From positions 13,627,628-13,681,344 of the forward strand of contig NC_057753.1 of NCBI RefSeq assembly GCF_004010195.1: a stretch of DNA of 53,717 bases, given 5' to 3'. The notes under the pieces were generated by a model. The model made no database searches. It had not been told where the DNA came from and saw nothing but the letters and a program-made list of their open reading frames with translations. The first letter of the stretch is position 1; each line of letters opens with the position of its first letter. This document shows, piece by piece, positions 14,641 through 51,687 of the stretch. This DNA is from Chiloscyllium plagiosum. Lineage: Eukaryota. A program made the position numbers and the translations under genes.

Positions 14641-15339
14641 GGTGCTGCTCAATGTCCTAACATAAAACACATCCTAGTGGCCAGTAGAACCCACAGGAGG
14701 CTCTGGAGCGTCAAGAAGTGAAAACCCACAGACATTGATAAGTGCATGAGGTCCATTGTTGCGCAATTTCCCATTTCACGGCTACCTCATTCTATGGGCC
14801 TGTTTTGTTAGATATTTCATCTACCTGAGGCTTTAAGTTTAGAGTTACTTCGATTGGACTGGAATTCAGTGACCTGCAGTACGTATTCCAGGAGATGACC
14901 AACACGTTTCAGATATTTAGTTCCACCAACAATGTCTTCATCTATGTGTAGCTCAGAATACGTTTCTAGAGTACCTGAAGAAAGTTCTGTCAACTATTTA
15001 AAAAAAAACGCCTTTTGTAAACTGCTATCACATCTCTGGATGCTCCCTTCCCCCTTGTTCTGTACTGGTGGAGTTTTTGTGAGGATGAGAGCAGGAAAGT
15101 TGTTTCTCATTAAATTCACACACGCCAACGTAGTCACTCTTTAAACCAGACCACTGAGCATTCTAATACATTGGCTTCCCTTCCTAATAAGCAATTCCAC
15201 AGATTCCTAGTTGTCTTAAATACATTTTCTCTCTTCCCTTACACTTCATTTTCCCACAGTTTCGCTTGTTGCAAGCTTAACGCATGTCCCAAATTGCCAA
15301 AGCACACCACCTTCAGTAATTAATCCCCACATGAAAATC

Positions 15340-18439: not shown

Positions 18440-19050
18440 GAGCTGTAACTGATCTGCATGCTGCACCTTAATAGTCCGTCTGGTGGTTCTCATTTAAAAT
18501 AACTTAGGAGTGATTGGAATGTGTCACTGAGCTAAAACATGAAGCTTCAGAAATGGCTTTAAAAATATAGGACCAGGCAACGGGCTCTTATTTACCATTT
18601 CCATTCTATTTTCACCTTTATTCGTGCACCGGGTAAGAAATGAATCGTAAGTAAGTTATTTTATTTTTGTGTTGTAAATCTGCATGAATTTAATTTCTTC
18701 CCTTTCATTAGCAGACTAATTTCTTTTCCAGCATTCCACGCTCTCTGATTGTAAGAGATTTCAACACATTTAATACGTATATTGTCATATTATGTGACAT
18801 TAGATGGCATGATGGCAAATTGTAGAGCAATTGTATATTGATGTTAAAATGATATTGTTCATTTATTAATCTGTGCTGGAACACGAATAAAATGTTGATT
18901 GGTTAGATATTTGGCAAAATATCATTACAATATAGTTTGAAAACCCATTCAGCGTGTTCAGTCTTCTTTAGAATAATAACAGTATTATGTTGCATGAATA
19001 TTTAATGTCAGAATGTGATCTTCGAATTTAATTGTGCAGACATTTGAAAC
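18440..19050 (+). pseudogene. Orphan, inverted GPCR paralog remnant (promoter, exon 1 and start of intron)
   Basis: 18570-18636 ggaccaggcaacgggctcttattt...gtgcaccgg|gtaag aligns to GPCR2 exon 1 (ggaccagcaaatgggctgttgttt...gtgcacccg|gtaag). ATG lost and a 1-bp frameshift. 18440-18503 matches the shared promoter block, and ~18980-19030 matches the GPCR2 intron (~44870-44920). No exon 2 seen. Confidence 0.8.
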
Positions 19051-22500: not shown

Positions 22501-22860
22501 TAGCCATTTGGATACAGAACTGGCTCAAAGGTAGAAGTCAGAGAGTGGTGGTGGAGGGTTGATTTTCAGACTGGAGGTGCTCGTGTCCTCCTTCTGCACA
22601 CTTGTGATATCCTCTCTGGCCAGTAATGCAACTCGTCCACTCCTTTTGCCTCCTTCTCCACCCCGCCTGAAGCAACTATATCCTGGGATATTTAGTTGGC
22701 AATCGTGTCCTCCCTCAACCATGTCTCCGTAATAGCAATACCATCATACCTCCAGGTACCACTTCAAGTCCTGTTCATCTGCCTTACCTACTACACTTCT
22801 TGTGTTAAAACAAATGCACCTCAGTCCCTTTGAGTTCACCATCTGCTCCCTGCCTAATCT
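19531..22860 (-). mobile_element. CR1 LINE ORF2 (endonuclease + RT), degraded, with internal insertions
   Basis: TSGVPQGSVLG, ISKFADDIK, KSPGPAGIYPRLLRE, LNIPGYSCFRR...GRVALL; tail aaagaacaaagaaa at 19531. Confidence 0.9.
22261..22577 (+). mobile_element. CR1 RT fragment embedded in the opposite-strand LINE
   Basis: KSCLTNLIEFFEEVT...VDVIYMDFSKAFDKVPH, homologous to 26094-26447. Confidence 0.85.
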
Positions 22861-23221
22861 TATCTGTAGCAATGCGTGAGTAGGCTGACATTAAATTAAT
22901 ACGTGTGCATGTGGTTGTATGTCTAAGATTTGTGCGTGTGGGTTTAAGTGCTTTGTTATTTGTCAGTTCATTTGAGCTGTCATACTTTCTGCTTTAGTTT
23001 AACAGTTTGTGCGTTCTATACAATGAACACAAACGGCGCTCACTTAAATTTCAACCAAGATTCCTCCTCCTCACCAATGCAGTTATACTTTTTTATTCAT
23101 GCTTCGGACATGTCTTTTGCTGTCTCAGCCAACAATTATTGCTCGTCCATATTTGCCTCTGTATGAGTATCACTAAAGCATATCAAACCTTCGACTGTGT
23201 CTGAAGTAAGGTTATCTCTCT

Positions 23222-23870
23222 ATCCCTCTCTCTGTGTGTGCGCGTGTGTGTGTGCATATATGTGTGTGTGTATGTGTGTGTTTATATTTGTCTATCTCTG
23301 TGTGTGCTTGTGTATTCAGGTCATGATGCTATGCTTTCTTTATGCATAGGCGTCCGATAGTGCTGTGCCAAATTCCACCTACAAAACACATGGAGGACAA
23401 TTCTAAATTGGAGAAAGGCCAATTTTGACGGTATTAGGTGAGAACTTTCGAAAGCTGATTGGGGGCTGATGTTCACAGGTAAAGGGACGGCTGGAAAATG
23501 GGAAGCCTTCAGAAATGTGATAACGAGAGTCCAGAGACAGTATATTCCTGTTAGAATGAAAGGAAAGTCTGGTAGGTACAGGGAATACTGGATGATTAAA
23601 GAAATTGTGGGTTTGGATAAGAAAAAGAAGGAAGCATATGTGAGGTAGAGACAGGATGGATCGAGTGAATCCTTAGAAGAGTATAAAGTCAGTAGGAACA
23701 TACTTAAGAGGGAAATCAGGAGGGCAAAAAGGGGACATGAGATAGATTTGGCGAATAGAATTCAGGAGAATCCAAAGGGTTTTTACAAATACATTAAGGA
23801 CAAAGGGGTAACTAGGGAGAAAATAGGGCCCCTCAAAGATCAGCAAGGCGGCATTTGTGTGGAACCGCAG
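23222..23870 (+). repeat. Copy 1 of a ~650-bp direct duplication (TG-rich microsatellite + unique spacer + CR1 fragment)
   Basis: Near-identical to ~25050-25704, with scattered substitutions. Confidence 0.9.
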
Positions 23871-25052
23871 CCGGGAAGGAAAGCGGTGAGTATTTATACT
23901 CACCCTTCGAAGCCATCGGTCATTTCCAGTGCGAGCAGCAGCGAAGGTAAGACCGTTTGGTTTTAAAAGTACTTACCGGTAGCGGGCAGCGGTGTTTTAT
24001 TTTCTCTTTCACTCTCTCTTCACAGAAAGAGCGGGAGCACCAGGGGGAAGTGACGACGACCAGAGGGGCAGCCGGGAAGGAAAGCGGTGAGTATTTATAC
24101 TCACCCTTCGAAGCCGTCGGTCATTTCCAGTGCGAGCAGCAGCGAAGGTAAGACCGTTTGGTTTTAAAAGTGCTTACCGGTAGCGGGCAGCGGTGTTTGT
24201 TTTTTTCTCTTTCACTCTCTCTTCACAGAAAGAGCGGGAGCACCAGGGGGAAGTGACGACGACCAGAGGGGCAGACGAGACCCGGAAGCAGTTAGTGTAA
24301 GCTTACCTGGGTAGGTTTTTTCCCCCTTTAAAAGCACGAAGGAGAGGAACCCGAGGCACTACACGGGTAGTGCCCCCCACCCGCCCTCCTCCTCTAACCT
24401 AATAATAACACCTGTTGTGGTAAGTAGGTAAGTGCTGAATTTTGCTTGTTGTATTCTTTAGACCCAGTTTTTTTTAAAATAAAAGTTAGCTTTAGAGGGA
24501 TGGCAGTGAAGGCAGTGCAATGTTCCTCCTGCAACAGGTATGAGGTGAGGGATGCCATCGACGTCCCTGCCGATTACACTTGCAGGAAGTGCACCCACCT
24601 CCAGCTCCTCCAAGACCGTGTTAGGGAACTGGAGCTGGAGTTGGATGAACTTCGGACCATTCGGGAGGCAGAGGGGGTCATAGATCAGAGTTATAGGGAA
24701 ATAGTAACTCCAAAGATGGCAGATAGATGGGTGACAGTGAGGGGGACTGGGAGGAAGCAGCCAGTGCAGGGACCCCCTGCGGCCATTCCCCTCAAGAACA
24801 AGTATACCGTTTTGGATACTTGTGGGGGGGATGACTTACCAGGGGTAAGTAACGGGGCTCAGGTCTCTGGCACGGAGCCTGTCCCCGTTACTCAGAAGGG
24901 AAGGGTGAAGAAGAGCAGAGCAGTACTAATTGGGGACTCGATAGTTCGGGGCACAGATAGACGGTTTTGTAGGAACGAGAGAGACTCACGTTTGGTATGT
25001 TGCCTCCCAGGTGCAAGGGTACGTGATGTCTCTGATCGTATTTTCCGGGTCC
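23867..25052 (+). mobile_element. CR1 5' end: tandem ~202-bp 5'UTR monomers plus ORF1 (zinc finger, coiled coil, SGNH esterase start)
   Basis: Monomers at 23867-24067 and 24068-24274. MAVKAVQCSSC...YTCRKCTHLQLLQDRVRELELEL...LIGDSIVRGTDRRFC...CCLPGARVRDV, truncated at 25052. Confidence 0.9.
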
Positions 25053-25227
25053 TCTCTCTCTGTGTGTGCGTGCGTGTGTGTGTGTGCATATATGTGTGTG
25101 TGTGTATGTGTGTATTTATATTTGCCTATCTCTGTGTGTGCTTGTGTATTCAGGTCATGATGCTATGCTTTCTTTATGCATAGGCGTCCGATAGTGCTGT
25201 GCCTAATTCCACCTACAATACACATGG

Positions 25228-27262
25228 AGGACAATTCTAAATTGGAGAAAGACCAATTTTGACGGTATTAGGCAAGAACTTTCGAAAGCTGATTGGGGGC
25301 AGATGTTCACAGGTAAAGGGACGGCTGGAAAATGGGAAGCCTTCAGAAATTTGATAACGAGAGTCCAGAGACAGTATATTCCTGTTAGAATGAAAGGAAA
25401 GTCTGGTAGGTACAGGGAATACTGGATGATTAAAGAAATTGTGGGTTTGGTTAAGAAAAAGAAGGAAGCATATGTGAGGTAGAGACAGGATACATCGAGT
25501 GAATCCTTAGAAGAGTATAAAGTCAGTAGGAACATACTTAAGAGGGAAATCAGGAGTGCAAAAAGGGGACATGAGATAGATTTGGCGAATAGAGTTCAGG
25601 AGAATCCAAAGGGTTTTTACAAATACATTAAGGACAAAGGGGTAACTAGGGAGAAAATAGGACGCCTCGAAGATCAGCAAGGCGGCATTTGTGTGGAGCC
25701 GCAGAAAAAGGGGGAGATACTAAATGAGTATTTTGCATCAGTATTTACTGTTGAAAAGGATATGGAAGTTATAGACTTAGGGAAATAGATGGTGACACCT
25801 TGCAAAATGTCCAAATTACAGAGGAAGAAATGCTGGATGTCTTGAAACTCAAAAAGATGGATCAATCCCCAGGACCTGATCAGGTATGTCCGAGAACTCA
25901 ATGGGAAAATAGAGACGTGATTGCTGGGCCTCTTGCTGACATATTTGTATCATCGATAGTCACAGGTGAGGTGCCGGAAGACTGGAGGTTGGCTAACGTG
26001 GTGCCACTGTTTAAGAAGTGTGGTAAGGACAAGCCAGAGAACTATAGGCCAGTGACCTGACGTCAGTGGTGGGCAAGTTGTTGCAGGGAATCCTGAGGGG
26101 CAGGATGTACATATATTTGGAAAAGCAAGGACTGATTAGAGATAGTCAACATGGCTTTGTGCGTGCGAAATCATGTCTCACAAACATGATTGAGTTTTCG
26201 AGGAAGTAACAAAGAGGATTGATGAGGGCAGAGTGCTAGATGTGATCTATATGGACTTCAGTGATACGTTTGACAAGGATCCCCATGGGAGACTGATTAG
26301 CAAGGTTAGATCTCATGGAATACAGAGAGACTGATTAGCAAGGTTAGATCTCATGGAATACAGAGAGAACTAGCGATTTGGATACAGAACTGGCTCAAAG
26401 GTAGAAGACAGAGGGTGGTGGTGGAGGGTTGTTTTTCAGACTGGAGGCCTGTGACCAGTGGAGTGCCACAAGGATCGGTGCTGGGCCATCTACTTGTTCT
26501 TATTTANNNNNNNNNNNNNNNNNNNNNNNNNNNNNNNNNNNNNNNNNNNNNNNNNNNNNNNNNNNNNNNNNNNNNNNNNNNNNNNNNNNNNNNNNNNNNN
26601 NNNNNNNNNNNNNNNNNNNNNNNNNNNNNNNNNNNNNNNNNNNNNNNNNNNNNNNNNNNNNNNNNNNNNNNNNNNNNNNNNNNNNNNNNNNNNNNNNNNN
26701 NNNNNNNNNNNNNNNNNNNNNNNNNNNNNNNNNNNNNNNNNNNNNNNNNNNNNNNNNNNNNNNNNNNNNNNNNNNNNNNNNNNNNNNNNNNNNNNNNNNN
26801 NNNNNNNNNNNNNNNNNNNNNNNNNNNNNNNNNNNNNNNNNNNNNNNNNNNNNNNNNNNNNNNNNNNNNNNNNNNNNNNNNNNNNNNNNNNNNNNNNNNN
26901 NNNNNNNNNNNNNNNNNNNNNNNNNNNNNNNNNNNNNNNNNNNNNNNNNNNNNNNNNNNNNNNNNNNNNNNNNNNNNNNNNNNNNNNNNNNNNNNNNNNN
27001 NNNNNNNNNNNNNNNNNNNNNNNNNNNNNNNNNNNNNNNNNNNNNNNNNNNNNNNNNNNNNNNNNNNNNNNNNNNNNNNNNNNNNNNNNNNNNNNNNNNN
27101 NNNNNNNNNNNNNAGGCATTTGGATGGGTATATGAATAGGAAGGGTTTGGAGGGATATGGGCCGGGTGCTGGCAGGTGGGACTAGATTGGGTTGGGATCT
27201 CTGGTCGGCATGGGAGGGTTGGACCGAAGGGTCTGTTTCTATGCTGTACATCTCTATGACTC
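25228..27262 (+). mobile_element. CR1 LINE ORF2 to 3' tail, spanning an assembly gap
   Basis: SPGPDQV, WRLANVVPLFKK...NYRPV, VTSGVPQGSVLG; tail ending tctatgactct at ~27262; 38-bp internal tandem duplication near 26290-26365. Confidence 0.9.
26507..27113. other. Assembly gap
   Basis: Run of N. Confidence 1.
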
Positions 27263-30005: not shown

Positions 30006-30901
30006 CTAACATTTTACTGCGAGTATGGTGAGAGGACACATGAGAATCTTCTGGATCTCCCTGCGGAACCTACTCTGAGATACTACATAAATGAATACGT
30101 TGTTGCAGGAACTAAGTAGCTGGAACATGTTATTGGTCTCTTGCAAGATGTAGTCTACATTTTGGAAATCCAGGCCGTTGAAGTCTGTATCACCTTTAAA
30201 ACGTACGAGGAAGAAATGTCCCACTTCGGTGGCCCACAGCAGCAGGAAGCTGACTGAGATGGCAAAGAGAAGGATGATGGATCTCCTGCGATTTTCCACC
30301 TCTGGGTCTCTACCACACTCAACATTTCGAAGTTTCTTCCTTGCTTTGCTGGCGGCCAGGATATGTCGTACAGTCAAGACATTAAGCAGCAGAATGAGGA
30401 GAAAAGGGAGAATAGGAGTTAAAATGTGTTCCATCCAATCATAGGCCTGCCAGGCAGGTAAAGTAAAAAAGATGGATTTGATGTCACATAACCAGGGTAG
30501 ACCATTCAGAATATATAAAGGTTTGAGGATATTGTACAGAGGGAAGTTTTTGACACAACTCAGGATACAGATCATTCCAATGAGCAGCGACGCAATTTTC
30601 ACGGTGCAGTATCCAATCTTCAGGCTTTGGCAGCAGATGGACACAAAACGGTCGATAGTGAAGGCCACAGTCAGCCAGACTGAGCCCTCTCGGCTGCAGC
30701 GGGCCAGGATTGTGCTCAGTTTGCATACAGAGGTAGCGGACAATACACTGTAAATAAAGTAGATGCGGCTGATCCGATTTAGGATGCACCCAGTGATGAT
30801 GACAAAAAAATCGGACACAGCTATTGCCACTAGATAGTAGGTTACACATCTGGAGAGCCCACATCGTCCTCGGGATAGTATTATAATTGACACCAAGTTG
30901 G
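30006..30901 (-). CDS. GPR139/GPR142-like class A GPCR, copy 1, exon 2 (spliced protein 321 aa)
   Basis: Acceptor ttatgtttgtcacag|CC AAC. Seven hydrophobic segments with exon 1. Motifs YLVAIAVSD (TM2), SVWLTVAFTIDRFVSIC (TM3), ILPFLLILLLN (TM5), FLLLW (TM6), SCNNVFIY...SRFR (TM7/H8). Confidence 0.92.
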
Positions 30902-31880
30902 CTGTGACAAACATAAAGTTTACTTGTACAATGTAAATTATAATACCTATACTTTACATCACATGCACTTTTATCAGTTGGGTGTTGCCCAGTTGAGTTC
31001 AAACATCAGCAACTGCTTCAGCCAACCGACACTGAAACCCTCCTTGTCCGAGCCTGTGTTCTCCCCAGCCTCCAACTAAACAAAAATAATTTGTATTTGT
31101 TCAGCATTTCATGCTGAGGTAAACATTTGGCAATATCAGGAACATTGCAGTCAGCGCCTGCCTCTGCCAATGCTGTTCTTCAGTCTCTGGCTTAATTCCA
31201 GTGACGAGTTATCCACAGTAATGTCTGAGTAAAATCATGTGACACATCCCGTCTCCATACCTAGACTTATTCTTTGAAAGTCTAAGTTAGCTGAGGTACA
31301 TTAGCACAGGGCCTGTCATTTCTCAGCTTTAATAAGCTCATCGTTAATAATTAAAAAGCCGCATAGATTAGGAACTCACATGCTGTTACCATCATTTATC
31401 TCAAAATAACTGCATTCCTACCATTTTTAAGCCTGATGTTAATCACTCCTGCTGTGCCTTTTGCTGTTGATGTCCCAAACTGTGGAACTTCCTTTCTATA
31501 GCACTTGTCATGTCTTCCTTCCGGACATTCCTTAACTCCAAACATTTTTAATTGTGATCTTTCTTTTTTGCCCAAAGTCTCTTTGCGAAGTTCTACATCA
31601 ATTGTCTTTCTAAAATCTCTTGACAGTAATCATCTTAACTTGAGGAAGGATAAATAACACAAGTATCCAAAATAAATGCTAAATGGACAAAAGCTAACAT
31701 TATCAGACAATTTATGAAGAGATGGAAATCTATTATCTTCTAATTTCACCTTTATGTAACTCTTCTATAATTAATTCTTAAGACTTTAGAGACTGCCCAA
31801 AAACAACACAAGACTCCAGAATAGTTATATCATTTTCGAGTTCGCATTACAATTTTCTAACTTCACCGCAAAGAATTGTG

Positions 31881-31926
31881 TATAATATAATATAATATAA
31901 TATAATATAATATAATATAATATAAT
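31881..31926. repeat. (TATAA)n pentanucleotide microsatellite in the GPCR1 intron
   Basis: About 9 perfect units. Confidence 0.95.
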
Positions 31927-32513
31927 GTTATCCAACGTGATTATTGTGCTGTAGTCATTCAATCTTCAATATATAGGCAATAAGAGCTGGAGTAGTCCAA
32001 TTGGCTCTTTCATCTTTCTCCATGATTCAGCTTTCTTATAACTTGTTCTCCACGTCAATGCTAACACAAACAGATCAGTGCCAGAAACTGCACTTTTATA
32101 CATTGCTACAACATGACTCAACGTTATACAATTTCAGAATAAAATTCAATACCAAACAATGTAAAATATGATTATTCAGACAATGCTGTAGACACTCTTC
32201 ATTATTAACATAACCTCAGAAACTGTTGTTTGTCGATGAAATGTGCAATAGAAAACTTTGAATGTAATCTTGCATTTCCAATTGATCAAAGCGCAAGCAA
32301 TGCACTTCATTGCACTCTTATGCAATAAAATAGCATACAATACGCAGTAAGAGGCGTATGACAATGCCACTTCATGACCCAGTTTCTGTCCATTCCCATT
32401 TAGAGAGGATTGGATCTTAGAGAATAATATCCAACCCAGTTATCAAAAGGAATGGCTAAGATTTGAGGAGATTTATACATAAACTCAAACTTCCTTTGCA
32501 ACACATTTCTTAC

Positions 32514-32583
32514 CTGGGAAACCAACAGCAGCGATAATGGGGTAACAAATGGCATAAAACAATCCTTTTACTGGCCCGTGCAT
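32514..32583 (-). CDS. GPCR copy 1, exon 1 (MHGPVKGLFYAICYPIIAAVGFP)
   Basis: accATG...CCA G|gtaag; 70 bp, phase 1, joins exon 2 in frame. Paralogous to 45286-45355. Confidence 0.9.
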
Positions 32584-32654
32584 GGTCCTTTCGAAACCAA
32601 TGAAATTCTCCAAGCTGCACAATTCAGTTGTACAACAGTTTCAAAGCGCCTCTT

Positions 32655-32720
32655 ATTTATTCTACCTGAGAGTCTCCAGAGAGAAGCTAAATTGCATCGT
32701 GCAGCTCAGTTGCAGTTCAA
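32655..32720 (-). promoter_or_regulatory. Conserved upstream block of GPCR copy 1
   Basis: tttattctacctgagagtctccagagag...tgcagttc aligns with 45427-45489 and the reverse complement of 18440-18503, at the same distance (~70 bp) from the ATG in both intact copies. Confidence 0.7.
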
Positions 32721-33329
32721 TAAAAAGATTAACACACAGTTATGTAACTTCTTCTTGCAACATTGACAAATGAGTAATTCCACTTTCTTTTTTACCAGAC
32801 TGCTCGCAACGAATTTTTAGGCTATTCTTCCAAATCCATTTATAGTATACCTAACAACTGCAGTGTCTGATAGGAGATGCTGACTGGAGGTCCTATTACT
32901 ATCCTGAAATTGCCCCTTCTCATCTTTTCGGCTAGGTGCTTAATTACTCTGTAAATGAGGGGGATCAGGTTCGTTCATGTAATTTATTTATTTGTGACGT
33001 TATCATATATATAATATTTATCATTGAACAATTCTGAAAAATTGTGTAAAACGCAAATGTGGAACACAATGCAACCACTCCTGCAAAAGAGAAATATTTG
33101 AAAAACTTTGTGTCTCCGACCAAGCCACACACACAGAAAGTGCATTAGAACTTTCGAGAATGATTCTCGTGTAGGAACAATGGAGAAAGGCTCAGCCATA
33201 GTATAAAGACGAACACAACTCAGTCCATGCTCCAAGTGGGAGTACGTACTGAGATACGACTTAAAAATATGGCCACTGTAAAGATAAAACCTACATACGT
33301 TTGGTGATAAGAGCTAGAAGACAGGTTTG

Positions 33330-34090
33330 TTCCACGGGACATGGGTGTCGCTGACCTAACCAACATTTATTATCAAACATCTCTATTTGTCAGTGAGAAG
33401 GTGATGAGGAACCACGGCAATATATTTCATGTTAATACTCTGCCAAAACTCTGACAGCGGGAGTTTGAGGATCTCCACTCACCAACACCGAAGTAATGGC
33501 GAAATGTTTCGGAGTCGAGATAGCAAATATAGATTGGATGGGAACACACAGTTTGTGGTGTTCCCATGTACCCGCTGCCCTTGTCCTTCTGGGTGGAAGT
33601 GATCGTTGGTTTGGAGTCTGAACTCGGAAGAGACCTGATGAACTTCTGGATTGCACTTTGTCGACGGCTGGAAGTCTGAAAGAAAACAGATAGTGCTGAA
33701 GAAACTCACCAGGTCTTGCAGTATATGTAGAGAGGGAACGAGTTGACATTTCGAGTCTTCAGATACAACTGCTACTGTGCAACGTGGGAGGAGGTCGAGT
33801 ATGATTATGGATGCTCCGTTAATTAGCTAGTCTGCTTTGTTCTGAATGCTATATAAGTTTGACGTGTGCTCTGCGAACTATCGAGGAAAGTGGAGATTAT
33901 TTCATCACAATCTTTTGACATGCACACATTTAAACGTGTTTCGTGAATCAGTAGGTAAGTTGCTCGCTGCAGGGTTTCTAATCTCTGATCTGCTTTTTAA
34001 ACCTCAGTATTTCAGTCGTATATCCATTTCAGCTTCTGGTCAATGGTAACATTCAGGCTACTGATAGTGGAGGAATTTAGCTAAGATAAT
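33330..34090 (-). mobile_element. Old degraded LINE 3' end (CR1/L2-like) with a small Penelope-derived insert (~33670-33762)
   Basis: Similar to 52200-52860 and 28060-28500. The tail gggacatgggtgtcgctg...catttatt resembles the Deu-SINE tails. Confidence 0.55.
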
Positions 34091-34839
34091 GTGATTTTAT
34101 GTGGACGGGTCCATAAAGGAAAACACTTCAATCCATCATTTTAACGTCAGCATCAAACATTTAATTGTTCTGGACCCATCTTCACCATTTTGGCAGATTG
34201 CCTTGTATGCTGTGATGATTCAATACACATCTAAACACTTTTTAACGTTTTCAAGTTTCTTGCTTTCACCTATGTCCAACGACCTTTGGGAGAATTTATT
34301 TCCTCAAATCCCTTTTGAAACTGTTGCTTCTTATCTTAAAAATCCATGGCCTGTTGTCGACCCGTTTAGTAAGGGGAACTTTGCTCCCTATCTACCCGAT
34401 CTGAGCCACTGATAAATTCTTGCCATCTTAATTGCAACGTAATGAGGAAGTGAACCACATGTACACGCCCAAAGCAAAACACACAAACATATTCACCACG
34501 AGTATTGGGGTTATGAGAAGTGACAAATAAGCAAACGAGAAGTTGTCATCTTTCATCTTGTTGAACGTCGCACTGCACTTCCCTTCTTTGTTTTCTTCTT
34601 GCATCGACATTTTTTTGCGTCTGTGTCAGTAAGTGGCTTTTTCCCGTTATTGTCTGACAGGTTTTGTAATTAAATTTGTGCTGGATATTGAAGAAAATCT
34701 AATCCCAAAATGAGAACAAAGAGTGGGTCAATGTGAAATACTGAAACAAATGTTGGCGAAAATGAGTGGCAAAGTTTGGGAGGAGGTGGTGTTAAGAAGT
34801 GGAAGCGGGAACTGACGTTATTGATTATTGACAGCAATG

Positions 34840-35468
34840 CCAAAGTGGATGTAGGTTTGCTCGCTGAGCTGGAAGGTTCATTCCCAGTTGTTTCATCACC
34901 CTGCTACGTAACATCTTCACGGGCCTCTGGGCGAAGCACTGCTGGTAATTCCTGCTTTCTATCTATATATTTGGGTTATTTTGGGTTGGTGATGTCATTT
35001 CCTGTGGTGATGTCATTTCGTTTGGTGATGTCATTTCCTGTTCTTTTTCTGAGGGTGTGGTGGATGTGGTCTAACTCAATGTGTTTGGTGATAGAGTTTC
35101 GGTTGGAATTCCATGCTTCTCGTGCCAGTCACACACGAAAATTCCTAGAAGCATGGCATTCCAACTGGAACTCTATCAACAAACACATTAAGTCAGACCC
35201 CATCTATCACCCCCTGAAACAAAGAACAGGCAATGGCATCACAACAGGAAATGATGTCACCACATGAAATGACATCACCGACACAAAGAAACCCAAACAT
35301 ATAAATAGAAAGCAGGAATTATCGTCAGTGATTCACCCGGAGGCCCACTGGCGACGTTAACTAGTAGGGTGATTAAACGTCTCTCTTGAAATGAACCTTC
35401 CAGCTCAACTAGCAAACCTGCATCCAGAACCTCAATCTGAGCTACAAATCTTCTCAAAACTCACTAAT
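34840..35468. mobile_element. Penelope-like element with inverted terminal arms
   Basis: 34845-35120 is the inverse of 35135-35430. RKFLEAWHSNWNSINKHI is GIY-YIG C-terminal-like. Degenerate hammerheads in both arms. Confidence 0.8.
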
Positions 35469-35849
35469 GCCTATGCGCGTTGATTCCTTTCTACAGATAC
35501 AGGGTCCAAGACTCGCAGTGATCTTTCTTGAGTTATAAAATACTGTGCAATGTGAGTGTCACAACACCAAACCAACTTTATTAACAAATGCTTCATTGTG
35601 CAAAATCCCGGAACATCACGAATTTTAAATATTTTGATCGTCTATAGAAAACAATATTCCTGAAATATCGACATGCAGAATAATGTGCAAGTTAAAAAGT
35701 TTCGTAAAAATTATAAAGATATTGTCAAGGTTGGACGGTTTCTGCTACAGGAAGAATTTGAATTTGTTAGACCTAATTTCCCTGGACTGTCGGAAGCTGA
35801 GGGGTCATTGAGTCATAGAGGGGTACAGCATGGAAACAAACCCTATGGC

Positions 35850-36200
35850 CAAACTGGAGATTTATAAAATCATGATAGGAATGGATAGGGTAAAGAGAAA
35901 AGGAACAACCCTTGCGTTGGGGGAATCCATAACTGGAAGACATAGTTTTAAAGTGAGAGGGGAAAGATTGAATAGGGACCTAAGGTGCATCTTTTCCACA
36001 CAGAGGGTGGTGCGTGTATGGAATGAGATGGAGGCGGGTAGAATTACTTTTAAAAGGCATCTGGGTGTTTATATGAATAGGAAGCGTTTGTGTATAAATG
36101 GGCCTAATGCTGGCAAATGGAACCAGATTTACATAGGATAAGTGTTTGGCATAGTCGAGTCTGATCGAAGGTTCTGTTTCAGTGCCGTACATCACAATGA
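35850..36200 (+). mobile_element. CR1 3' fragment
   Basis: EIYKIMIGMDRV...FSTQRVVRVWNE. Confidence 0.8.
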
Positions 36201-36230
36201 ATTTAATTGGTACGATTGTCATTCGTTTTA

Positions 36231-36662
36231 CATAGAAGAATACAGCGCAGTACAGGCCCTTCGGCCCTCGATGTTGCGCCGATCCAAGCCCACCTAACCT
36301 ACACTAGCCCACTATCCTCCATATGCCTATCCAATGCCCGCTTAAATGCCCATAATGAGGGAGAGTCCACCACTGCTACTGGCAGGGCAGTCCATGAACT
36401 CACGACTCGCTGAGTAAAGAACATACCCGTACCATCTGTCCTATACCTACCCCCCCCCCCTTAATTTAAAGCTATGCCCCCTTGTAAGAGGGGGCATAGC
36501 TGACTCCATACGTGGGAAAAGATTCTCACTGTCGACCCTATCTAAACCCCTAATCATCTTATACACCTCTAACAAGTCACCCCTAAACCTTCTTTTCTCC
36601 AATGAAAACAACCCCAAGTGCCTCAGCCTTTCCTCATACGATCTTTCTACCATACCAGGCAA
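36231..36662 (-). mobile_element. CR1 3' fragment (young)
   Basis: SYEERLRHLGLFSLEKRRFRGDLLEVYKMIRGLDRV. Confidence 0.88.
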
Positions 36663-38059
36663 ATATGTGTTTTCTTTATGATCAACTACTGGTTATAAAT
36701 ATGAAATCACTACTTCATTGTTTCGCTCACTCTCAACAGAGGTACCTGAAGCTGAAGAATACTTTCCATGGAAAACTTTGACAATACAACAATTCGTGAT
36801 TGCAAGGATTCATACTCAGTTGTCAACGAAATACATTAGTATGGCATGGTTTCGTAAGCGCCCTGCATGTTTAAGGCAAGACTTCCACAAATATGTGTTT
36901 TTGTTGCCTCTGTTATAAACATACCAGTATTGTTCACGTCTCTACTAAAACTATTTTGCCGAAATGGATATGATTCCATGGCTATCCAATGAAGCAATGA
37001 AGAAAAGCGTTCTTAAATTTTTTAGGGAGAGTTGTCAGTAAATTGAAGCGATATTTTGTAAGAAAAATGACAATGAGGACACAATGGATAAAAACACAAG
37101 CATCACTATAATATATGCGTTTGTTTCTCATTACATAATTATTATTTGGCTTTAGATTTCCCTTCAAATCAAGCAAATGAAAATGCAAGCATCTGTAATA
37201 CTCATATTTATTTTCGGCCAATTTCTCCACGCAGAACATGTCTATTTCTACCTGAAAATATACAATCCAAGGGCTGAATACGATTTTGGGCAATTGGATA
37301 ATTCCGTACCACTAGAACATATCAAAGGGTGACTGGCATGGCTCATTGAGAACACTCGCACAGTTAGAGGAGTAAAGACGACGAGGAACTATCAAATGTT
37401 AAAAAAAAAGTTAGTCAACTAAAGTAAAACGGAAGATCATTGTTTCTGTTCGTCTCACAAAGATAAAAACCAAGAGGTAATTTGATAGTGATGAATGCAA
37501 TGAATAAGTAAATACGAAGTTATTAGAAACGTTCTTTAAAATGAGAAAAGGAAGAATGAATTGGAGGTCTGATGCAGAAATGAAGGAGCAAGTGGCAGAT
37601 GCTCATAGCTGGTTGAAGAATTGTGGGTAAAACAGAATAAACACAGATCACAAAACGCATAGGTGCAACCATAACCTCGAATGTGTGACCGTCGAGGACA
37701 TGCACGTCAGTTTTGAGAACTCTTCTTTCAGATGCCATACATGGAAATTTAGAAATATCACAGAAATTGTGATACATCGATTGTGCCGCTAGATCTGAAT
37801 AGTGACTTGAACGTTTGGAGACTTTCTGACACAGTTGGGAATGTTCCAAAACATTGTGACAGACGAGTTTCCAATCACTGAATGTACTTTTAAAATAAAA
37901 ATGTAAATAAACAGGCCTGATTGAGCGACACGAGGAAAAATACTTAGAAATAACACTATATTTCGGAATAGGAAAATGTGTAATTTTTTTTAAAACCCAA
38001 GGTCACTGATGTTCAGTCAGAATGACAAATACTCTCAAATCGTTCAGATCAGTTTAACC

Positions 38060-38433
38060 ACAAGGGATGAACTCAGATTTCTCCAGTTTCCTCATTTCCC
38101 CTCCCCCCACCTTGTCTCAGTCCCAACCCTCGAACTCAGCACCGCCTTCCTAACCTGCAATCTTCTTCCTGACCTTTCCGCCCGCACCCCCACTCCAGTC
38201 TATCACCCTCATCTTGACCTCCTTCCACCTATCGCATTTCCAACGCCCCTCCCCCAAGTCCCTCCTCCCTACCTTTTATCTTAGCCTGCTGGACATACTT
38301 TCCTCATTCCTGAAAAAGGGCTCATGCCCGAAACGTCGATTCCCCTGCTCCTTGGATGCTGCCTGACCAGCTGCGCTTTTCCAGCAACACATGTTCAGCT
38401 CTGATCTCCAGCATCTGCAGTCCTCACTTTCTC
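38060..38433 (+). mobile_element. Penelope-like terminal repeat with hammerhead motif (38310-38337)
   Basis: Reverse complement of 1418-1760. Motif ctgaaaaagggctcatgcccgaaacgtc, with core G8 changed to A. Confidence 0.85.
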
Positions 38434-39432
38434 AAGGTCAATTTAATGTTCGCTGCCAATAGAAATAAAGGTTACATTTCAAACGACCACTCAAGAATGA
38501 TTTTATTCCTACGCCAGTGTTTATCACTGTTGAACGGTTCTGACTGTGTTAGAATTGAGTTGGAACATACTCACGTGTATAACAGTTTATGCTGTGTCTT
38601 CTTCTTTGAACGTTTTGTTTTCCTCTTCCGTCAAACCATGGCTGATTCCTGCTACAATATTACTTCCTGTGATTGTGGCATAAATGATCTTAGTCCTGCT
38701 TATATGCACATTGTTGGGTTAATCAGAGGGCTCGAATCACTCTTATTTCAACAATACATCAAAGGAAGAAACCAATGTGTTCTGACTCGTATGCCTGGGC
38801 TCTCTAATGGAGCTGTCAGTTATTTGCACACCGCTCTTTCCTTCAGACCTAGCAAAAACGATAACGAGAAAAAAACAAAATTCAAAAACTAGTAATGGAA
38901 AGGAAGACAGCGAAAAATGAATGAACGAATGAATGAATGAATGAAGAAAAGAAGGAAGGAAGCATGGAAGGACAGCCCAATTATGTACTTTTAAGTCGGT
39001 TGTGTAATTTCCAATCGTATTTTCAGAACAATAACAGCGAATGTGCAAATTTGCAGTGACACGAAGGTTGGTGGAGTTGTGGATAGTGCTGACGGGTGTT
39101 GTAGATTACACATAAGCTGCAGAGCTGGGCGGAGAGGTGACAAATGGAGTTCAATGCAGAAAAGTGTGAGGTATTTGCAGTGACACGAAGGTTGGTGGAG
39201 TTGTGGATAGTGCTACGGGTGTTGTAGATTACACAGGGATATAGATAAGCTGCAGAGCTGGGCGGAGAGGTGACAAATGGAGTTCAATGCAGAAAAGTGT
39301 GAGGTGATGCACCTTTGAAGGAGCAACAGGAATAAAGAGTACTGGGATAATGGTAAGGTTTTTGCTAGTGTAGGTGAGCACAAAGATCTCAGTGTCCATG
39401 TACGGAGATCCCTGAAAGTTGCCATCCAGGTT

Positions 39433-42067
39433 AGACAATAGACAATAGGTGCAGGAGTAGGAAACATGTTTCCTGCCTCCAGAGTGACCAATCCTTTAAT
39501 AATCTTATATGTCTCAATCAGATCCCCTCTCAGTCTTCTAAACTCAAGGGTATACAAGCCCAGTCGCTCCAGTCTTTCAGTGTAAGGTAGTCACGCCATT
39601 CCAGGAATTGACCTCGTGAATCTACGCTGCACTCCCTCAATAGCCAGAATTGTCATTCCTCAAATTCGGGGACCAGAACTGCACACAATACTCCAGGTGT
39701 GATCTCACCAGGGCCCTGTATAGCTGCAGACGAACCTCTTTGCTTCTATACTCAATCCCTCTTGTTATGAAGGCCAGCATGCTATTAGCCTTCTTCACTA
39801 CCTGCTGTACCTGCATGCTTGCCTTCATTGACTGGTGTACAAGAACACCCAGATCTCTTTGTACTGCCTCACCTAAATTGATTCCATTGAGGTAGTAATC
39901 TGCCTTCCTGTTCTTGCCACCAAAGTAGATAACCATACATTTATCCACATTAAACTGCATCTGCCATGCATCTGACCACTCACCAAACTGTCCAGGTCAC
40001 ACTGTAATCTCCTAACATCATCCTCACATTTCACACTGCCAGCCAGCTTAGTATCATCAGCAAATTTGCTAATGTTATTACTAATACCACCTTCAATATC
40101 ATTAACATATATTGTAAAAAACTGCGGTCCCAGCANNNNNNNNNNNNNNNNNNNNNNNNNNNNNNNNNNNNNNNNNNNNNNNNNNNNNNNNNNNNNNNNN
40201 NNNNNNNNNNNNNNNNNNNNNNNNNNNNNNNNNNNNNNNNNNNNNNNNNNNNNNNNNNNNNNNNNNNNNNNNNNNNNNNNNNNNNNNNNNNNNNNNNNNN
40301 NNNNNNNNNNNNNNNNNNNNNNNNNNNNNNNNNNNNNNNNNNNNNNNNNNNNNNNNNNNNNNNNNNNNNNNNNNNNNNNNNNNNNNNNNNNNNNNNNNNN
40401 NNNNNNNNNNNNNNNNNNNNNNNNNNNNNNNNNNNNNNNNNNNNNNNNNNNNNNNNNNNNNNNNNNNNNNNNNNNNNNNNNNNNNNNNNNNNNNNNNNNN
40501 NNNNNNNNNNNNNNNNNNNNNNNNNNNNNNNNNNNNNNNNNNNNNNNNNNNNNNNNNNNNNNNNNNNNNNNNNNNNNNNNNNNNNNNNNNNNNNNNNNNN
40601 NNNNNNNNNNNNNNNNNNNNNNNNNNNNNNNNNNNNNNNNNNNNNNNNNNNNNNNNNNNNNNNNNNNNNNNNNNNNNNNNNNNNNNNNNNNNNNNNNNNN
40701 NNNNNNNNNNNNNNNNNNNNNNNNNNNNNNNNNNNNNNNNNNNNNNNNNNNNNNNNNNNNNNNNNNNNNNNNNNNNNNNNNNNNNNNNNNNNNNNNNNNN
40801 NNNNNNNNNNNNNNNNNNNNNNNNNNNNNNNNNNNNNNNNNNNNNNNNNNNNNNNNNNNNNNNNNNNNNNNNNNNNNNNNNNNNNNNNNNNNNNNNNNNN
40901 NNNNNNNNNNNNNNNNNNNNNNNNNNNNNNNNNNNNNNNNNNNNNNNNNNNNNNNNNNNNNNNNNNNNNNNNNNNNNNNNNNNNNNNNNNNNNNNNNNNN
41001 NNNNNNNNNNNNNNNNNNNNNNNNNNTTTATATGTTTCTTAACTTCCCTTGTCAGCCACGGCCACCCATGCCTCCTCCTAGGATCTTTCTTCCTTTTTGG
41101 AATGAACTGATCCTGCATCTTCTGCATTATACACATAAATATCTGCCATTGTTCCTCCACTGCCATCCCTGCTAAGGTATTGCACCATTGAACTTTGGCC
41201 AGCTCCTCCCTCATCGCTCCATAGTTCCCTTTATTCAACAGAAATATTGTCACTTCTGATTATACCCTCTCCCTCTCAAATTGCAGATTGAAGCTTATTG
41301 TATTATGGTCACTACTTCCCAATGGCTCCTTCACTTCGAGATCCCTGATCAATTCTGGTTCGTTACACAATACCAGATCCAAAATTGCCTTCTCCCTGGT
41401 AGGTTCTAGCACCAGCTGTTCTAAGAATCCATCTCGGAGACACTCCACAAACTCTCTTTCTTGAGGTTCAATACCATCCTGATTCTCCCAGTCTACCTGC
41501 ATGTTGAAATCCCCCATAACAACTGCAATAACATCTTTGCGACAGGCCAATTTCAGCTCTTGATTCAACTTACATCCGACATCCAGACTACTGTTTGGGT
41601 CCTGTAGATAACTCCCAAGGGGGTCTTTTTACCCTTAGAATTTCTCAGCTCTATCCATACTGACTCTACATCCCCTGATTCTAGGTCCCCCCGCGCAAGG
41701 GACTGAATATCATCCCTTACCAACATGTCCACCCCACCTCCTCTGCCCGTCAGTCTGTCCTTACGATAGCCCGTGTAGCCTTGAATATTCATTTCCCAAG
41801 CCCTGTCCACTTGAAGCCACGTCTCAGTTATCCCCACAATATCGTATCTGCCAATTTCCAAAAGAGTCTCAAGCTCATCCATCTTATTTCTCATGCTTCG
41901 AGCATTCATATATAGTATTTTTAATTTGTTACTGCTCTCACCTTCCCATCAACTCCTATTTCACTCAACCTTACAGCATGATCCCTTTTTGAATTTTCAG
42001 CTTCATTGATACAGTTGTCTTTCTTGACTTCCCTTGTGCTAACTTTCCCTTCAATTTCCTTCTTAAA
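39433..42067 (-). mobile_element. CR1 LINE ORF2 (APE endonuclease to RT), spanning a gap
   Basis: NARSMRNKMDEL...DIVGITETWL, VMGDFN...LDLVLCN...GSSDH, LVRSHLEYCVQFWSP; (agacaat)n tail at 39433. Confidence 0.92.
40136..41027. other. Assembly gap
   Basis: Run of N. Confidence 1.
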
Positions 42068-43029
42068 CATCCAGTTTGATAGGGTTGTTAAGAAGGCGTA
42101 TGGGATATTAGCTTCTATTGGTGCAGGGATTAAATTTCTGAGCCATGAGGTCATGCTGCAGCTGTACGAAATTTTGGTGCTGCAGCACTTGGTGTATTGC
42201 GTACAGTTCTGGTCAACAGTATGTTCGGTAGGATGTGGAAGCTTTTCAGAAGAGATTTACTAGGATGTTGCCTGGTATGGAGGAAAGTCTTATGAGGAAA
42301 GGCTGGGAGCTTGAGGCTGTTTGCATTCGAGAGAAGAAGGTGAGAGGTGACTTAATTGAGACATAAAAGATAATCAGAGGGTTAGACCGGGTGGTCAGTG
42401 ATAGCCTTTTTCCCTCGATGGTGATGGCTAGCACGAGGGAACATAGCTTTAAATTGAGGGCTGACAGATATAGGACAGATGTTAGAGGTAGTTTCTTTAT
42501 TCAGAGGGTAATAGGGGCGTGGAATGCACTGCCTGCAACAGTAGTAGACTCGTCAAATTTAAAGGCATTTAAATGGCCATTGAATAAACATAGAGAAGAA
42601 AATGGAATCGTGTAGGATAGACGGGCTTCAGATTGGTTCCACAGGTCGGCACAACATTGAGGGCCGAATGGCCTGTTCTATTTTCGGTATTCGAGAGTAA
42701 GATTCAAAACAAAAGAGATTGAGAAGAGTAAGAAGCAAGCAGCCTCAGTTTTTAATTAGATGAGGGATAACGGTTGACAATGATTGTAGAGGGAAATCTC
42801 TTTTCATTTTGAAGTACAATGATGGAATATTGCACATGCTTTTTGAGTCAATGGACACAAGCCCTGAGTAAACATCTGGCCACAGGGAACAATTTGCCTT
42901 GGAGAATGACTCTTTCGGTTATCCTGCGGACATGAAAAGACTGGTTTCTGATTCTGGGAGAGAGTGCTACACATCTAACTGCACTCACTAAAGGGGAATA
43001 CTGGCAAGATGTGATGCTGCTTTTCCTTT

Positions 43030-43931
43030 CTACTGTTTTGTGCTGGCAGTGAACATTCGCAGGGGACACATCAGGATTTTCTTGAGTTCTTCCCGGAACA
43101 TGCTCTGTGATACCACGTAGATGACAATGTTGTTGCAGGAGCTGAGTAATGTAAGCATGTTTGTTGTCTCTTGAAGAATGTACTTGGGATCATTGAAGTT
43201 CCGTTTGCCAACGTACTCTTCACCGGTAACCATTCTGTGGAGAAACCGCACGATGTAAGTGACCCACAAGAGGAGGAAACTAAGAGAGATGGCAAAGAGG
43301 AGGACAATGGATTTCTTGCGGTTTGCCATCTCTGAGTCCTCATCGTTTCTGGCCCTACGGAGTCTCTTCCGGGCTCTGCTGGCCGCTAAGATGTGTCTTA
43401 CAGTCAGAGCGTTGAGCAGCAGAATGAGGAGGAAGGGGAGAAAGGGGATTAAGATATGGTTTAAATATCGGTAGACCTGCCAAATGGGTGAATTGTGGAA
43501 GATCGTTTTGATATCACAGAACCAGGGCACTGTATCCAGTATGTACATGGGCTTGTAGATGAAGTATAAAGGGACGTTCTTGATACAGAGCAGGACACAG
43601 ATCAGCCCTATGACTAGTGACGCAGTTTTCTCAGTGCAGTATCTGGTCTTCAGACTCTGGCAGCAGATGGCAACAAAACGGTCGAAGGTGAACGCTACTG
43701 TCAGCCAGACGGAACAATCCCGCGTGGCGTAGACCAGCACAGCACTGAGGCTGCAGCCAGGGGTGGTGGACAACACGCTGTAGCTAAAATAGATGCGGCC
43801 AATCCTGTTGAGGATACACCCAGTGATGATAACTAAGAAATCAGCAACTGCTATCGCCAGTAGGTAGTAGGTGATGCATCGGGAGAGACCACAGCGTCCT
43901 TGGGATAAGATAATAATCGCTAACATGTTTG
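43030..43931 (-). CDS. GPR139/GPR142-like class A GPCR, copy 2, exon 2 (spliced protein 323 aa)
   Basis: Acceptor (ct)n ttatcttccatag|CA AAC. Motifs YLLAIAVAD, CSVWLTVAFTFDRFVAIC, FLPFLLILLLN, FLLLW, SCNNIVIY. Clear paralog of 30006-30901. Confidence 0.92.
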
Positions 43932-45285
43932 CTATGGAAGATAAAGAGAGAGAGAGAGAGATAATACTAAACAAACTCCAAACACCAACTGCATATAGAC
44001 TGGCACTGGAAGCGTCCAAATGCATCGACTTTCCACCCTCAGAAACAGACCCAAATTCAGAGCATTTCAAAATAATTGTTAATTGCTCGATATCCATTGC
44101 TGGATTAAACTTTGGTAATGCAGGAGTCACTGTAATCTTCTCCGTTACAGGATCTACTCTCTGACCACTGAGACAACACCTAAAGCTAAGTATCCAATTG
44201 AATCTCATTCTATATATATGGTGCCCATAGCTTTAAATATTCCATGCCCAATTCATCCAAAATCCTTCACTCGCTGACCTACATTGCCTTTCTATCTGAC
44301 AAAGCCTGGTTTTAATTATCTTCACAACTGAGTTTCAAATTCTTCCACAGTCACGCCGCTTCCCGTATACTTCGGCAAAGATTTAATATCACATTATCCC
44401 TCCAATGCTGTTCACTTGCACATCCCTGGGATTAAAGAATCTCATTAGAGTTGTAAACGTGTTTAACGTTGAGGCTGTAAGTGTTTAAATTCCGTTCTCC
44501 AATGACTGACTCTCTCCTCCCTTCTGTCGGTCTTCGCCCTTAATGTAACCGTTTATCCAAGCTTTAAGTTGTCCCTTCTAATCTTGCTTTGTGTGTTTCT
44601 CTATCACGTTTATTTGTTGCACCACCTCTGATGCATCCCCATTTTATCTACTGCACTGATTAGAGAAACAACTGTAAAGCGAACTTTCCAGTGAAAGCAA
44701 AACGTCATCAATCCATGTGATCTTTACCAGCAAAGTACATGTCTACAATGGATGCGAAAATGGAACTACTCAAAATAACAGCCAAATTTCAAAATCTACC
44801 AGGGCAAGTCAAAATGTGAAATAATTTAAAGTCTTTCAACAGCAAACATTTCTTGCAACCTTTTTCACTAATTCTTAAGATGATATTAATAACGTCAAAT
44901 ATTCATGACATTTAATACTACTATTGCACATCAATTAGGTACGTTGGAGTGTATCTTAATGCATTATAAGAAAATATTAATAAAAATAATAGTCACAGAA
45001 ATAACAATTTGTTACCACATGCATCAGGAATCTAACAAGTAATGACTTTATAAAATTGTTCCACAATATAATGAATAATATTTTATGCTCCACAGTGCAA
45101 GTTCAAGTAATGCACTCATTTAACAGAATACTACGTAATATATTGTGATTTTATATGGGGACGTGGTTGAATTCCGTTATACAGACAAAACATTGGATAT
45201 TTCTGATATTTAGCCAGATCCTGAAGGCAAAGTGCAAATGTTTATGAAGAATAAAAACATAACTAAGTTGGAATAGATTACTTAC

Positions 45286-45355
45286 CGGGTGCACCAATGA
45301 GAGCAAGAAGTGGATAGAAAATTGCAAACAACAGCCCATTTGCTGGTCCATGCAT
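45286..45355 (-). CDS. GPCR copy 2, exon 1 (MHGPANGLLFAIFYPLLALIGAP)
   Basis: aagATG...CCC G|gtaagt; 70 bp, phase 1, in frame with exon 2. Confidence 0.9.
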
Positions 45356-45426
45356 CTTTTCAGTGATTGAAAGGATTACCGTATTTCCACACTTCGGCTC
45401 TGAGACAGGTTCGAGGTATCCCTCAT

Positions 45427-45490
45427 TTATTCTAACTAAGAGTCTCCAGAGGGGTAATTAAAACAGAATATGCACTACAAGTGCAGTTCT
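45427..45490 (-). promoter_or_regulatory. Conserved upstream block of GPCR copy 2
   Basis: tttattctaactaagagtctccagaggggtaattaa...tgcagttc, shared with copies 1 and 3. Confidence 0.7.
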
Positions 45491-51188: not shown

Positions 51189-51647
51189 ATAGGGAACTGT
51201 CTCATACCGTTCCTTGTCATTGTATCTATTCTCAGTAAGTATCTCCTTCTCAGAAAAAAAGTTTATTTTTACAATACAACTGTTTTCTTTGTCGATGAGA
51301 TGATGACAATTATGTTGATCAATATGAGGCTGATGTTGGTTGTCTTTTTTTTACTGTTTCCCATGTTAGAATGGAGTCAGCAGGATACTATTGAACCTTT
51401 GCTGAAATGACAGTTGAAGAGGGAAAGGATATCGTCCTCACCTGCAATTTGAAAACAAGTGATTCTAATGCTTTTGCATACTGGTACAGTCAGAGCCCCA
51501 TGCATCCTCCAGAGTTCATGCTTCAGCTTAATGGGATGCGTTTGCGCAGGAACACTGGCATCAATGAACGATTTTCTTCGAATAAAACTGGCAAGATCAC
51601 TGAACTATCAATCAGCAATATCCTCATCTCCGACAGCGCCTGCAACT
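51189..51647 (+). pseudogene. T-cell receptor alpha/delta-type V gene segment, pseudogene
   Basis: Leader exon 51189-51234 (ATA in place of ATG; GNCLIPFLVIVSIL; A|gtaagt). Acceptor tgttag| at 51369. V exon reads WSQQDTIEP/frameshift/AEMTVEEGKDIVLTC...YWYSQSP...PEFML...RFS...LSISNILISDSA, with the YYC motif deleted. Confidence 0.85.
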
Positions 51648-51687
51648 CACAATATTGCAGAGATTAAATGGATCCCGTACAAAAACA
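51648..51687 (+). other. Recombination signal sequence, 23-type
   Basis: Heptamer CACAATA (51648-51654), 24-bp spacer, nonamer ACAAAAACA (51679-51687), directly after the V exon. Confidence 0.85.

Follow-up and report, generated by a model that had tools for sequence, protein, structure and literature searches.

Two genes for class A (rhodopsin-like) G-protein-coupled receptors (GPCRs), here called A and B, lie on the minus strand of a stretch of 53,717 nucleotides from the shark Chiloscyllium plagiosum (assembly GCF_004010195.1, contig NC_057753.1, positions 13,627,628 to 13,681,344; hereafter, the window). We show herein that both are intact and that they belong to a family of sharks and rays that is represented in this genome by about 1,500 related stretches. 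The family is set apart from GPR139, the name under which most of its members are catalogued, and its promoters, fold and pattern of selection suggest that it probably serves chemosensation.

Two intact class A receptor genes

Each gene is made up of two coding exons, the first being 70 bp long and ending in phase 1. Exon 1 of gene A (32514..32583) encodes the N-terminus and the first half of transmembrane helix (TM) 1, and exon 2 (30006..30901) runs from TM1 to the stop codon of a 321-residue protein. The corresponding exons of gene B are located at 45286..45355 and 43030..43931, and its protein has 323 residues. A phase-1 GT-AG intron inside TM1 (1,612 bp in gene A, 1,354 bp in gene B) separates the exons, and neither reading frame contains an internal stop. 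The two-exon structure and the open frames agree with a preliminary description of this stretch, in which two intact minus-strand genes, each with a 70-bp phase-1 exon and a single large exon, had been proposed. The same exon 1 is used in the NCBI model P0066, the orthologue of gene A in Hemiscyllium (the epaulette shark), which is 96% identical and differs at 12 of 321 sites, none of them in extracellular loop (ECL) 2 or ECL3; the exon, which starts with MHGP, also opens independent NCBI gene models of other sharks. Gene B is 96% identical to P0001 of Chiloscyllium punctatum, and the named proteins nearest to the two genes come from Chiloscyllium and Hemiscyllium. Between themselves, the two proteins are 63% identical, with 37% of sites differing.

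Both proteins match the Pfam model 7tm_1 above its cut-off. Gene B also exceeds the cut-off of the nematode Srw chemoreceptor model, with a score below that of 7tm_1, and gene A has no Srw match. Together with 7tm_1, the seven TM helices followed by helix 8 and the residues N1.50, D2.50, DR, P5.50 and Y7.53 identify A and B as class A receptors. The TM3 and ECL2 peptides quoted in the preliminary description, a TM6 without proline and the NNxxIY motif of TM7 are all present in the sequence. The missing TM6 proline is a distinctive feature, being retained in GPR139 and GPR142 and present in only 3 of 73 aligned rows of the family described below. The missing TM7 proline, on the other hand, is no special mark, because true GPR139 and GPR142 have F at the same position.

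A shark-and-ray family distinct from GPR139

A degenerate TM3 motif found 1,531 exact matches in the genome, versus none for a reversed control, and it recovered 65 of 74 family loci known from protein searches (27/28, 25/27 and 13/19). All 40 loci that were picked from the motif matches, by hand and not at random from the 100 leading rows of two match lists, proved to be family sequence: 21 had an intact exon 2, 16 were broken and three were cut by gaps (21 of 37 readable loci intact). A protein search with gene B met 8,105 candidates, of which 131 were scored, all at least 52% identical. Stop-free matches in three protein searches with different members numbered 107/131, 111/130 and 107/130 (at least about 325 of 391, counted by eye), and no place shared among the three match sets was seen by eye. 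The genome would accordingly hold at least about 325 intact main exons and, by extrapolation, some 600 to 1,100, less allelic duplicates on unplaced scaffolds. At least 24 matches of the gene B search fall inside 1.9 Mb around the window, and other copies lie on many contigs. What had been taken for a local tandem cluster is part of a far larger family that extends over many contigs and occurs in both sharks and rays. The idea of a lineage-expanded receptor family subject to birth and death is borne out by the number of motif matches and by the presence of intact and broken copies. The best 120 of 2,071 database matches came from sharks and rays wherever a species was given and were mostly named "probable GPR139"; a further member in UniRef, P0318, has an accession prefix that we take to be that of a chimaera. 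Proteins of the family are already in gene catalogues, under automatic names.

A GPR139 motif identified true GPR139 at a single place in the genome (L031), on another contig, with a product 85% identical to human GPR139, and shark GPR142 proteins also exist separately from the family. Genes A and B are only 20-24% identical to GPR139. One quick tree and one careful tree (27 rows, LG+G4) were built, both unrooted and without TRHR or another distant outgroup. In both, the shark-ray family forms one clade (support 100/99 in the 27-row tree), whose sister is an amphibian/sturgeon gene (the P0331 group; support 100/100). A clade uniting the family with GPR139/142 was rejected by the approximately unbiased (AU) test on the 27-row tree (p=7.4e-5). 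One-to-one orthology of genes A and B with GPR139/142 is excluded by the separate true GPR139, the low identity and the tree. The phylogeny and the AU test therefore agree with the earlier view that these genes are distinct from true GPR139 orthologues; where one to three copies, orthologous to GPR139/142, had been named as the contrary outcome, about 1,500 matches in a separate clade were found.

Bony-vertebrate relatives were sought by a profile search over representatives at 50% identity, with names checked for 20 of 150 matches. Two are closer to the family than is GPR139, namely the amphibian/sturgeon gene and a gene of coelacanth and teleosts, of which this shark has one clear orthologue. 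Like the family, the P0331 group and the coelacanth, silverside and shark genes (P0342, P0352 and L146) have a short N-terminus, Cys3.25 and an ECL2 cysteine, and they are 26-33% identical to genes A and B. Unlike in the family, no expansion was seen for the amphibian gene, which appears as one cluster per listed species (66-74% identity) in a word-limited search that leaves its copy number unproven; no amniote member was present among 25 matches. The amphibian, sturgeon and coelacanth genes carry automatic names and are otherwise uncharacterised. More broadly, bony vertebrates have three or more additional lineages resembling GPR139 (P0342, P0352, P0373, P0387 and P0331), which are automatically named "GPR139" and are distinct from true GPR139, with no amniotes among the matches; L146 (G000:C26:36600769-36601743) is this shark's single orthologue of one such lineage.

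An AlphaFold model of P0066, computed from an 87-row alignment (predicted local distance difference test score 85.5), has seven helices, a beta-hairpin ECL2 and a TM1 that begins at residue 8. The observation that TM1 starts almost at the initiator methionine thus holds for this orthologue of gene A, but not for the family as a whole, another subfamily having at least 40 extra residues with a short repeat. Cys3.25 is present in 71 of 73 family rows and the ECL2 cysteine in all 73, while the position of H113 in GPR139 is acidic in 72 of 73 (Asp in 71). A cysteine pair between TM3 and ECL2, a long ECL2 and an acidic TM3 residue make up the typical layout of a peptide receptor, and aromatic amino acids are therefore not the default ligand here. 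GPR139 and GPR142 are class A orphan receptors reported to be activated by L-Trp and L-Phe, with F109, H187, W241 and N271 as pocket residues of GPR139 (PMC5430874). When these four positions and E108, H113 and R244 were compared, two of seven (W241 and N271) were found to be kept in A and B, and B has Y at F109. Since little of this pocket is conserved and the architecture of ECL2 differs, aromatic amino acids appear doubtful as ligands of A and B. Foldseek returned 500 class A matches of nearly equal quality, including chemokine and complement receptors, and gave no clue to the ligand.

Selection, promoters and surroundings

Selection was estimated with self-written codon site models, whose M0 likelihoods agree with those of IQ-TREE. 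For the subfamily to which A and B belong (gene A and 28 intact exons from the 30 best loci), the ratio of nonsynonymous to synonymous substitution (omega) is 0.20 overall, being 0.19 in extracellular parts, 0.23 in pocket-lining TM codons, 0.16 in other TM codons and 0.24 in intracellular parts; outer TM3 alone evolves somewhat faster (0.33-0.38). No positive selection was detected (M2a equals M1a; twice the log-likelihood difference, 2dL, is 0.48 for M8 versus M8a), although power is reduced at a synonymous divergence (dS) of about 1.5. For gene A versus gene B, dS is 1.50 and the nonsynonymous divergence is 0.25. Given this purifying selection and the few differences between orthologues, none of them in ECL2 or ECL3, A and B are old, stable subtypes. 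The actively diversifying pocket that had been attributed to them was not found: their subfamily is under purifying selection in every region and has no positively selected class of sites.

A younger subfamily behaves differently, so that uniform purifying selection describes the subfamily of A and B but not the family. Its 34 sampled exons have a median protein identity of 88%, and at least 130 members are found at 83% identity or above. M2a is favored over M1a with a 2dL of 605, placing 5% of sites at an omega of 9.3. All 15 positively selected sites are extracellular, with ECL1, ECL2 and the TM6-ECL3-TM7 top represented (Fisher p=4e-10). The signal persists when the alignment is divided into thirds that are each given a separate tree, and four null simulations gave a 2dL of at most 2.5. 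TM and intracellular parts have an omega of 0.3-0.45, with 0.45 for pocket-lining TM codons. Since the deep pocket is conserved while the outer loops vary, the data suggest that the ligands of this subfamily are large molecules whose core is constant and whose other parts vary. Exon 1 of the subfamily contains a variable number of short peptide repeats; the intron is about 24 kb long in one traced copy (L102-L133, L180-L202), with a 65-bp satellite inside and around it. Copies are dispersed on contig C8, one every few hundred kilobases. With regard to a transposon-like carrier, the shared blocks are tens of kilobases long with patchy edges, and no sharp common ends were seen; terminal repeats were not searched for.

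A short sequence block, located some 70-115 bp before the ATG, is common to genes A and B. In gene B (45425..45460, minus strand), it consists of a homeodomain-type site (45460-45455), a 2-bp spacer, an Olf/EBF (O/E)-type palindrome (45452-45443) and a TATA-like box (45430-45425). In gene A (32655..32682, minus strand), the palindrome (32682-32673) and the TATA-like box (32660-32655) are present, while the homeodomain site is degenerate. Another 40 stretches of 10 kb, added to the earlier loci, yielded 42 promoters, 36 of them non-redundant. TAATTR is found at -135 to -75 in 20 of the 36, against 22 of 356 background windows, and 15 of the 20 have a TATA-like box downstream. The EBF/O-E-type palindrome starts 2 bp after TAATTR, O/E-type sites being present in 25 of 36 promoters. 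The complete composite (homeodomain site, 2 bp, palindrome) occurs in 17 of 36, with spacers of 0 to 4 bp giving counts of 4, 1, 17, 0 and 1; dinucleotide shuffles yield at most one. With a strict EBF palindrome, the figures are 18 of 36 and at most two. A related variant lies upstream of exon 1 in the young subfamily, which is a distant one (485 genome matches versus 48 for the control), where an intact exon 1 follows in 12 of 30 loci read. The composite is absent at the corresponding place upstream of the single-copy gene of coelacanth type, and searched genome-wide by itself it is too loose for mapping targets (134 matches versus 83 for the control). About half of the proximal promoters sampled thus contain homeodomain and O/E sites of the olfactory-receptor type, for which binding is predicted. 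In the mouse, O/E and homeodomain sites are found in the majority of OR promoters (PMC3247230), and mouse OR enhancers are reported to be driven by an adjacent Lhx2/Ebf composite with strict spacing (PMC5608512).

V2R-type genes of the same genome served as a control, being provisionally assigned to V2R/OlfC by an exon-1 motif and by the clustering of tandem class C receptors. The O/E pattern is present in 9 of their 15 non-redundant promoters (shuffles: mean 1.7, maximum 5). These genes form a tandem array of about 40 at G000:C13:63.7-65.9 Mb (L275-L322), and their promoters show an excess of O/E-type sites close to a TATA box.

Two relics of the family lie elsewhere in the window. A decayed promoter cassette with exon 1 (18468..18632, plus strand) has lost its start codon and carries a 1-bp deletion, with a splice donor at 18633; no exon 2 was found downstream of it in the readable window, which has an N gap at 26507-27113. 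A broken TM5-TM7 fragment of another copy occupies 14659..14990 (plus strand; independent E-value 6e-10 against a hidden Markov model). The two do not make up one gene in order, because the TM5-TM7 piece is upstream of the exon-1 relic. The third, dead copy that had been noted at 18.5 kb is therefore a decayed family relic indeed, but it is on the plus strand and comprises promoter and exon 1 only, and the second relic had been overlooked.

Receptor genes and antigen-receptor V segments are interspersed on the same contig. A V-set antigen-receptor pseudogene at 51371-51666 (plus strand) has a disrupted second cysteine motif, and no recombination signal was found for it. Two further V segments (in L120), apparently of the T-cell-receptor type by their motif, lie 20-30 kb outside the window, and L118 contains a partial one. 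Arrays of some 11 C2H2 zinc fingers, as is typical of tandem ZNF genes, are located at 12375-13364 (plus strand) and in L121. The window also contains a GC-rich tandem repeat at 5873-7126 (unit 179 bp, seven copies, 96% matches), what we take from translated frames to be fragments of CR1/L2-type long interspersed elements at 8400-9100, 19800-27200 and 39200-42300, and, in addition to the gap given above, an assembly gap at 40136-41026.

Possible functions and known receptor systems

Taken together, the family of A and B is probably a new chemosensory receptor family, with its expression and ligands predicted from sequence. Lhx2-type homeodomain and EBF (O/E) factors would bind the cassette just upstream of the TATA box and would thereby activate single genes in chemosensory neurons, olfactory or other. 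The ligand of each receptor would be an external molecule, most likely a peptide or a polar amine, bound at a site between the disulfide-tied ECL2 hairpin and the acidic TM3 residue, and the receptor would signal via Go/Gi or Gq to PLC and TRPC2; every catshark olfactory neuron is reported to be marked by Go/Gq and TRPC2 (PMC10116579). The subfamily of A and B, like other old ones, may be fixed on stable cues, with the younger subfamily retuning its outer loops to fast-changing ones (individual, species, prey or microbial peptides). A stronger form of this proposal, which we advance tentatively and would rate at somewhat less than an even chance, holds that the family is a chemoreceptor set peculiar to sharks and rays and the principal one that they have. 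In that case, hundreds of intact class A receptors, derived from a neuropeptide-receptor clade and controlled by Lhx2 and EBF in olfactory neurons, would exceed the known shark olfactory genes in number more than 10-fold. An olfactory-type repertoire is a large family with many pseudogenes, as is found here, and diversifying selection at ligand-facing sites is seen in the outer loops of the young subfamily, though not in the subfamily of A and B. Neither A nor B has a Pfam match to OR, V1R or class C models (7tm_1 and Srw only); a TAAR tree was not built.

Several observations weigh against a chemosensory role. Lhx2 and EBF are also active in other neurons and in B-lineage cells. The composite is missing in 19 of 36 promoters, including the homeodomain half in gene A and most of one clade group, and the fixed composite is found in none of the 15 V2R-type promoters. 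The degenerate O/E pattern was derived post hoc from the same promoters, which, because of their common ancestry, are not independent. TCTGGR, a motif of mouse V1R and OR genes, shows no enrichment (7 of 36, with shuffles up to 8). The single mouse composite probe seen in PMC5608512 fits best at a 1-bp spacer, versus 2 bp here, and the top-50 list for catshark "brain and olfactory epithelium" in PMC11979771 contains no GPCR. Finally, an omega of about 9 on the outer loops and the neighbouring V segments fit a host-pathogen conflict equally well.

This last point leads to the alternative, which we consider unlikely yet worth keeping in view, that the receptors are innate-immune sensors on leukocytes or barrier epithelia, akin to formyl-peptide or chemokine-type receptors, with outer loops in an arms race with microbial ligands or receptor-binding microbial proteins. 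It would account for high omega limited to the outer loops with pocket-lining TM codons at 0.45, EBF1 is a B-cell factor, and chemokine and complement receptors are among the many equal Foldseek matches. The genes of the window also lie amid antigen-receptor V segments and C2H2 zinc-finger genes, and it is because of these V segments that the immune explanation stays alive. Many copies, however, are on contigs far from V segments, and the layout of homeodomain site, O/E site and TATA box matches olfactory receptor regulation. Of the two options, chemosensory or immune, that the preliminary description had left side by side, the promoter evidence thus favors the former. A term search of the 8,645 marker rows of a bamboo-shark immune single-cell atlas (PMC11372145) found no family name among the immune-cell cluster markers listed, a weak indication in that sparse or multi-mapped genes would escape.

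It is more improbable still that the family detects endogenous peptides or metabolites in the brain, in the gut or in endocrine or germ cells, as an expanded version of the role of GPR139/142 and of the single-copy amphibian/coelacanth relatives. The conservation of the nearest outside relatives, with one cluster per listed amphibian species, the purifying selection on A and B and their 96% orthologues in related sharks are in keeping with such a role, and the wider clade is reported to include invertebrate neuropeptide receptors (PMC8514136); yet hundreds of intact copies, a pseudogene share of about 40% and positively selected outer loops are a misfit for a small number of endogenous ligands. 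Least probable of all, and already largely refuted by the selection results, is the view that segmental duplication in repeat-rich regions carried most copies along as passengers, with little function. Copies of the young subfamily do share blocks, about 82% identical, that reach as far as 29 kb upstream, together with the 65-bp satellite; 16 of 37 readable loci are broken, and many matches are on unplaced scaffolds, some of them maybe allelic (the L015/L023 pair; maximum DNA identity 98.5%). But exon 2 is 90-93% identical, versus about 82% for introns, omega even in the young subfamily is 0.3-0.45 across TM and intracellular parts, against 0.2 for the subfamily of A and B, and the promoter cassette is retained across deep clades.

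Whatever their function, several hundred intact receptors under the automatic name "probable GPR139" contradict the statement that cartilaginous fishes have few GPCRs (PMC8455134). The catshark olfactory repertoire is described as very small, with 34 V2R genes and 4-9 in each other family, and keen shark smell has been explained as sensitivity at the cost of discrimination (PMC10116579). If the family is olfactory, the paradox of large noses with few receptors would be resolved; if it is the main chemoreceptor family, vertebrates would have a further olfactory receptor family, and the view of sharks smelling with about 50 receptors would be overturned. If it is immune, an unrecognised germline sensor family would lie beside an antigen-receptor locus. 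No publication on the family was found in a literature search whose scope mostly excluded subscription journals; the main texts of PMC11979771, PMC7677710, PMC10620051 and PMC8455134 do not mention it by term, and their supplements may list it.

Of the known systems, GPR139 and GPR142 (PDB 7vug) belong to the same wider clade as the family and likewise lack the TM7 proline and keep W6.48. GPR139 also shares the phase-1 intron in TM1, its acceptor being seen at the shark GPR139 locus. It has a single match in the genome, however, against about 1,500 for the family, and GPR139/142 lack both the TM3-ECL2 disulfide and the long hairpin ECL2 that the family possesses. Nematodes and molluscs have co-opted the clade of FMRFamide, MIP and sex-peptide receptors for chemosensation. 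Likeness to this clade and to nematode Srw appears in the Srw match of gene B and in ESM Atlas neighbours named FMRFamide receptor-like, and the clade is reported to share its origin with GPR139/142 (PMC8514136); the shark-ray expansion is nonetheless independent and vertebrate. There are parallels with OR, TAAR, V1R/ORA and V2R/OlfC, which are likewise large birth-and-death sets with pseudogenes, often with a short N-terminus, and which also have homeodomain and O/E promoter sites and a variable outer surface. The formyl-peptide receptors of the rodent vomeronasal organ are a further vertebrate chemoreceptor family of a similar kind. From OR, TAAR, V1R and V2R, the present family differs in its two coding exons and in having no membership by sequence, and its sensory role is one that we infer.

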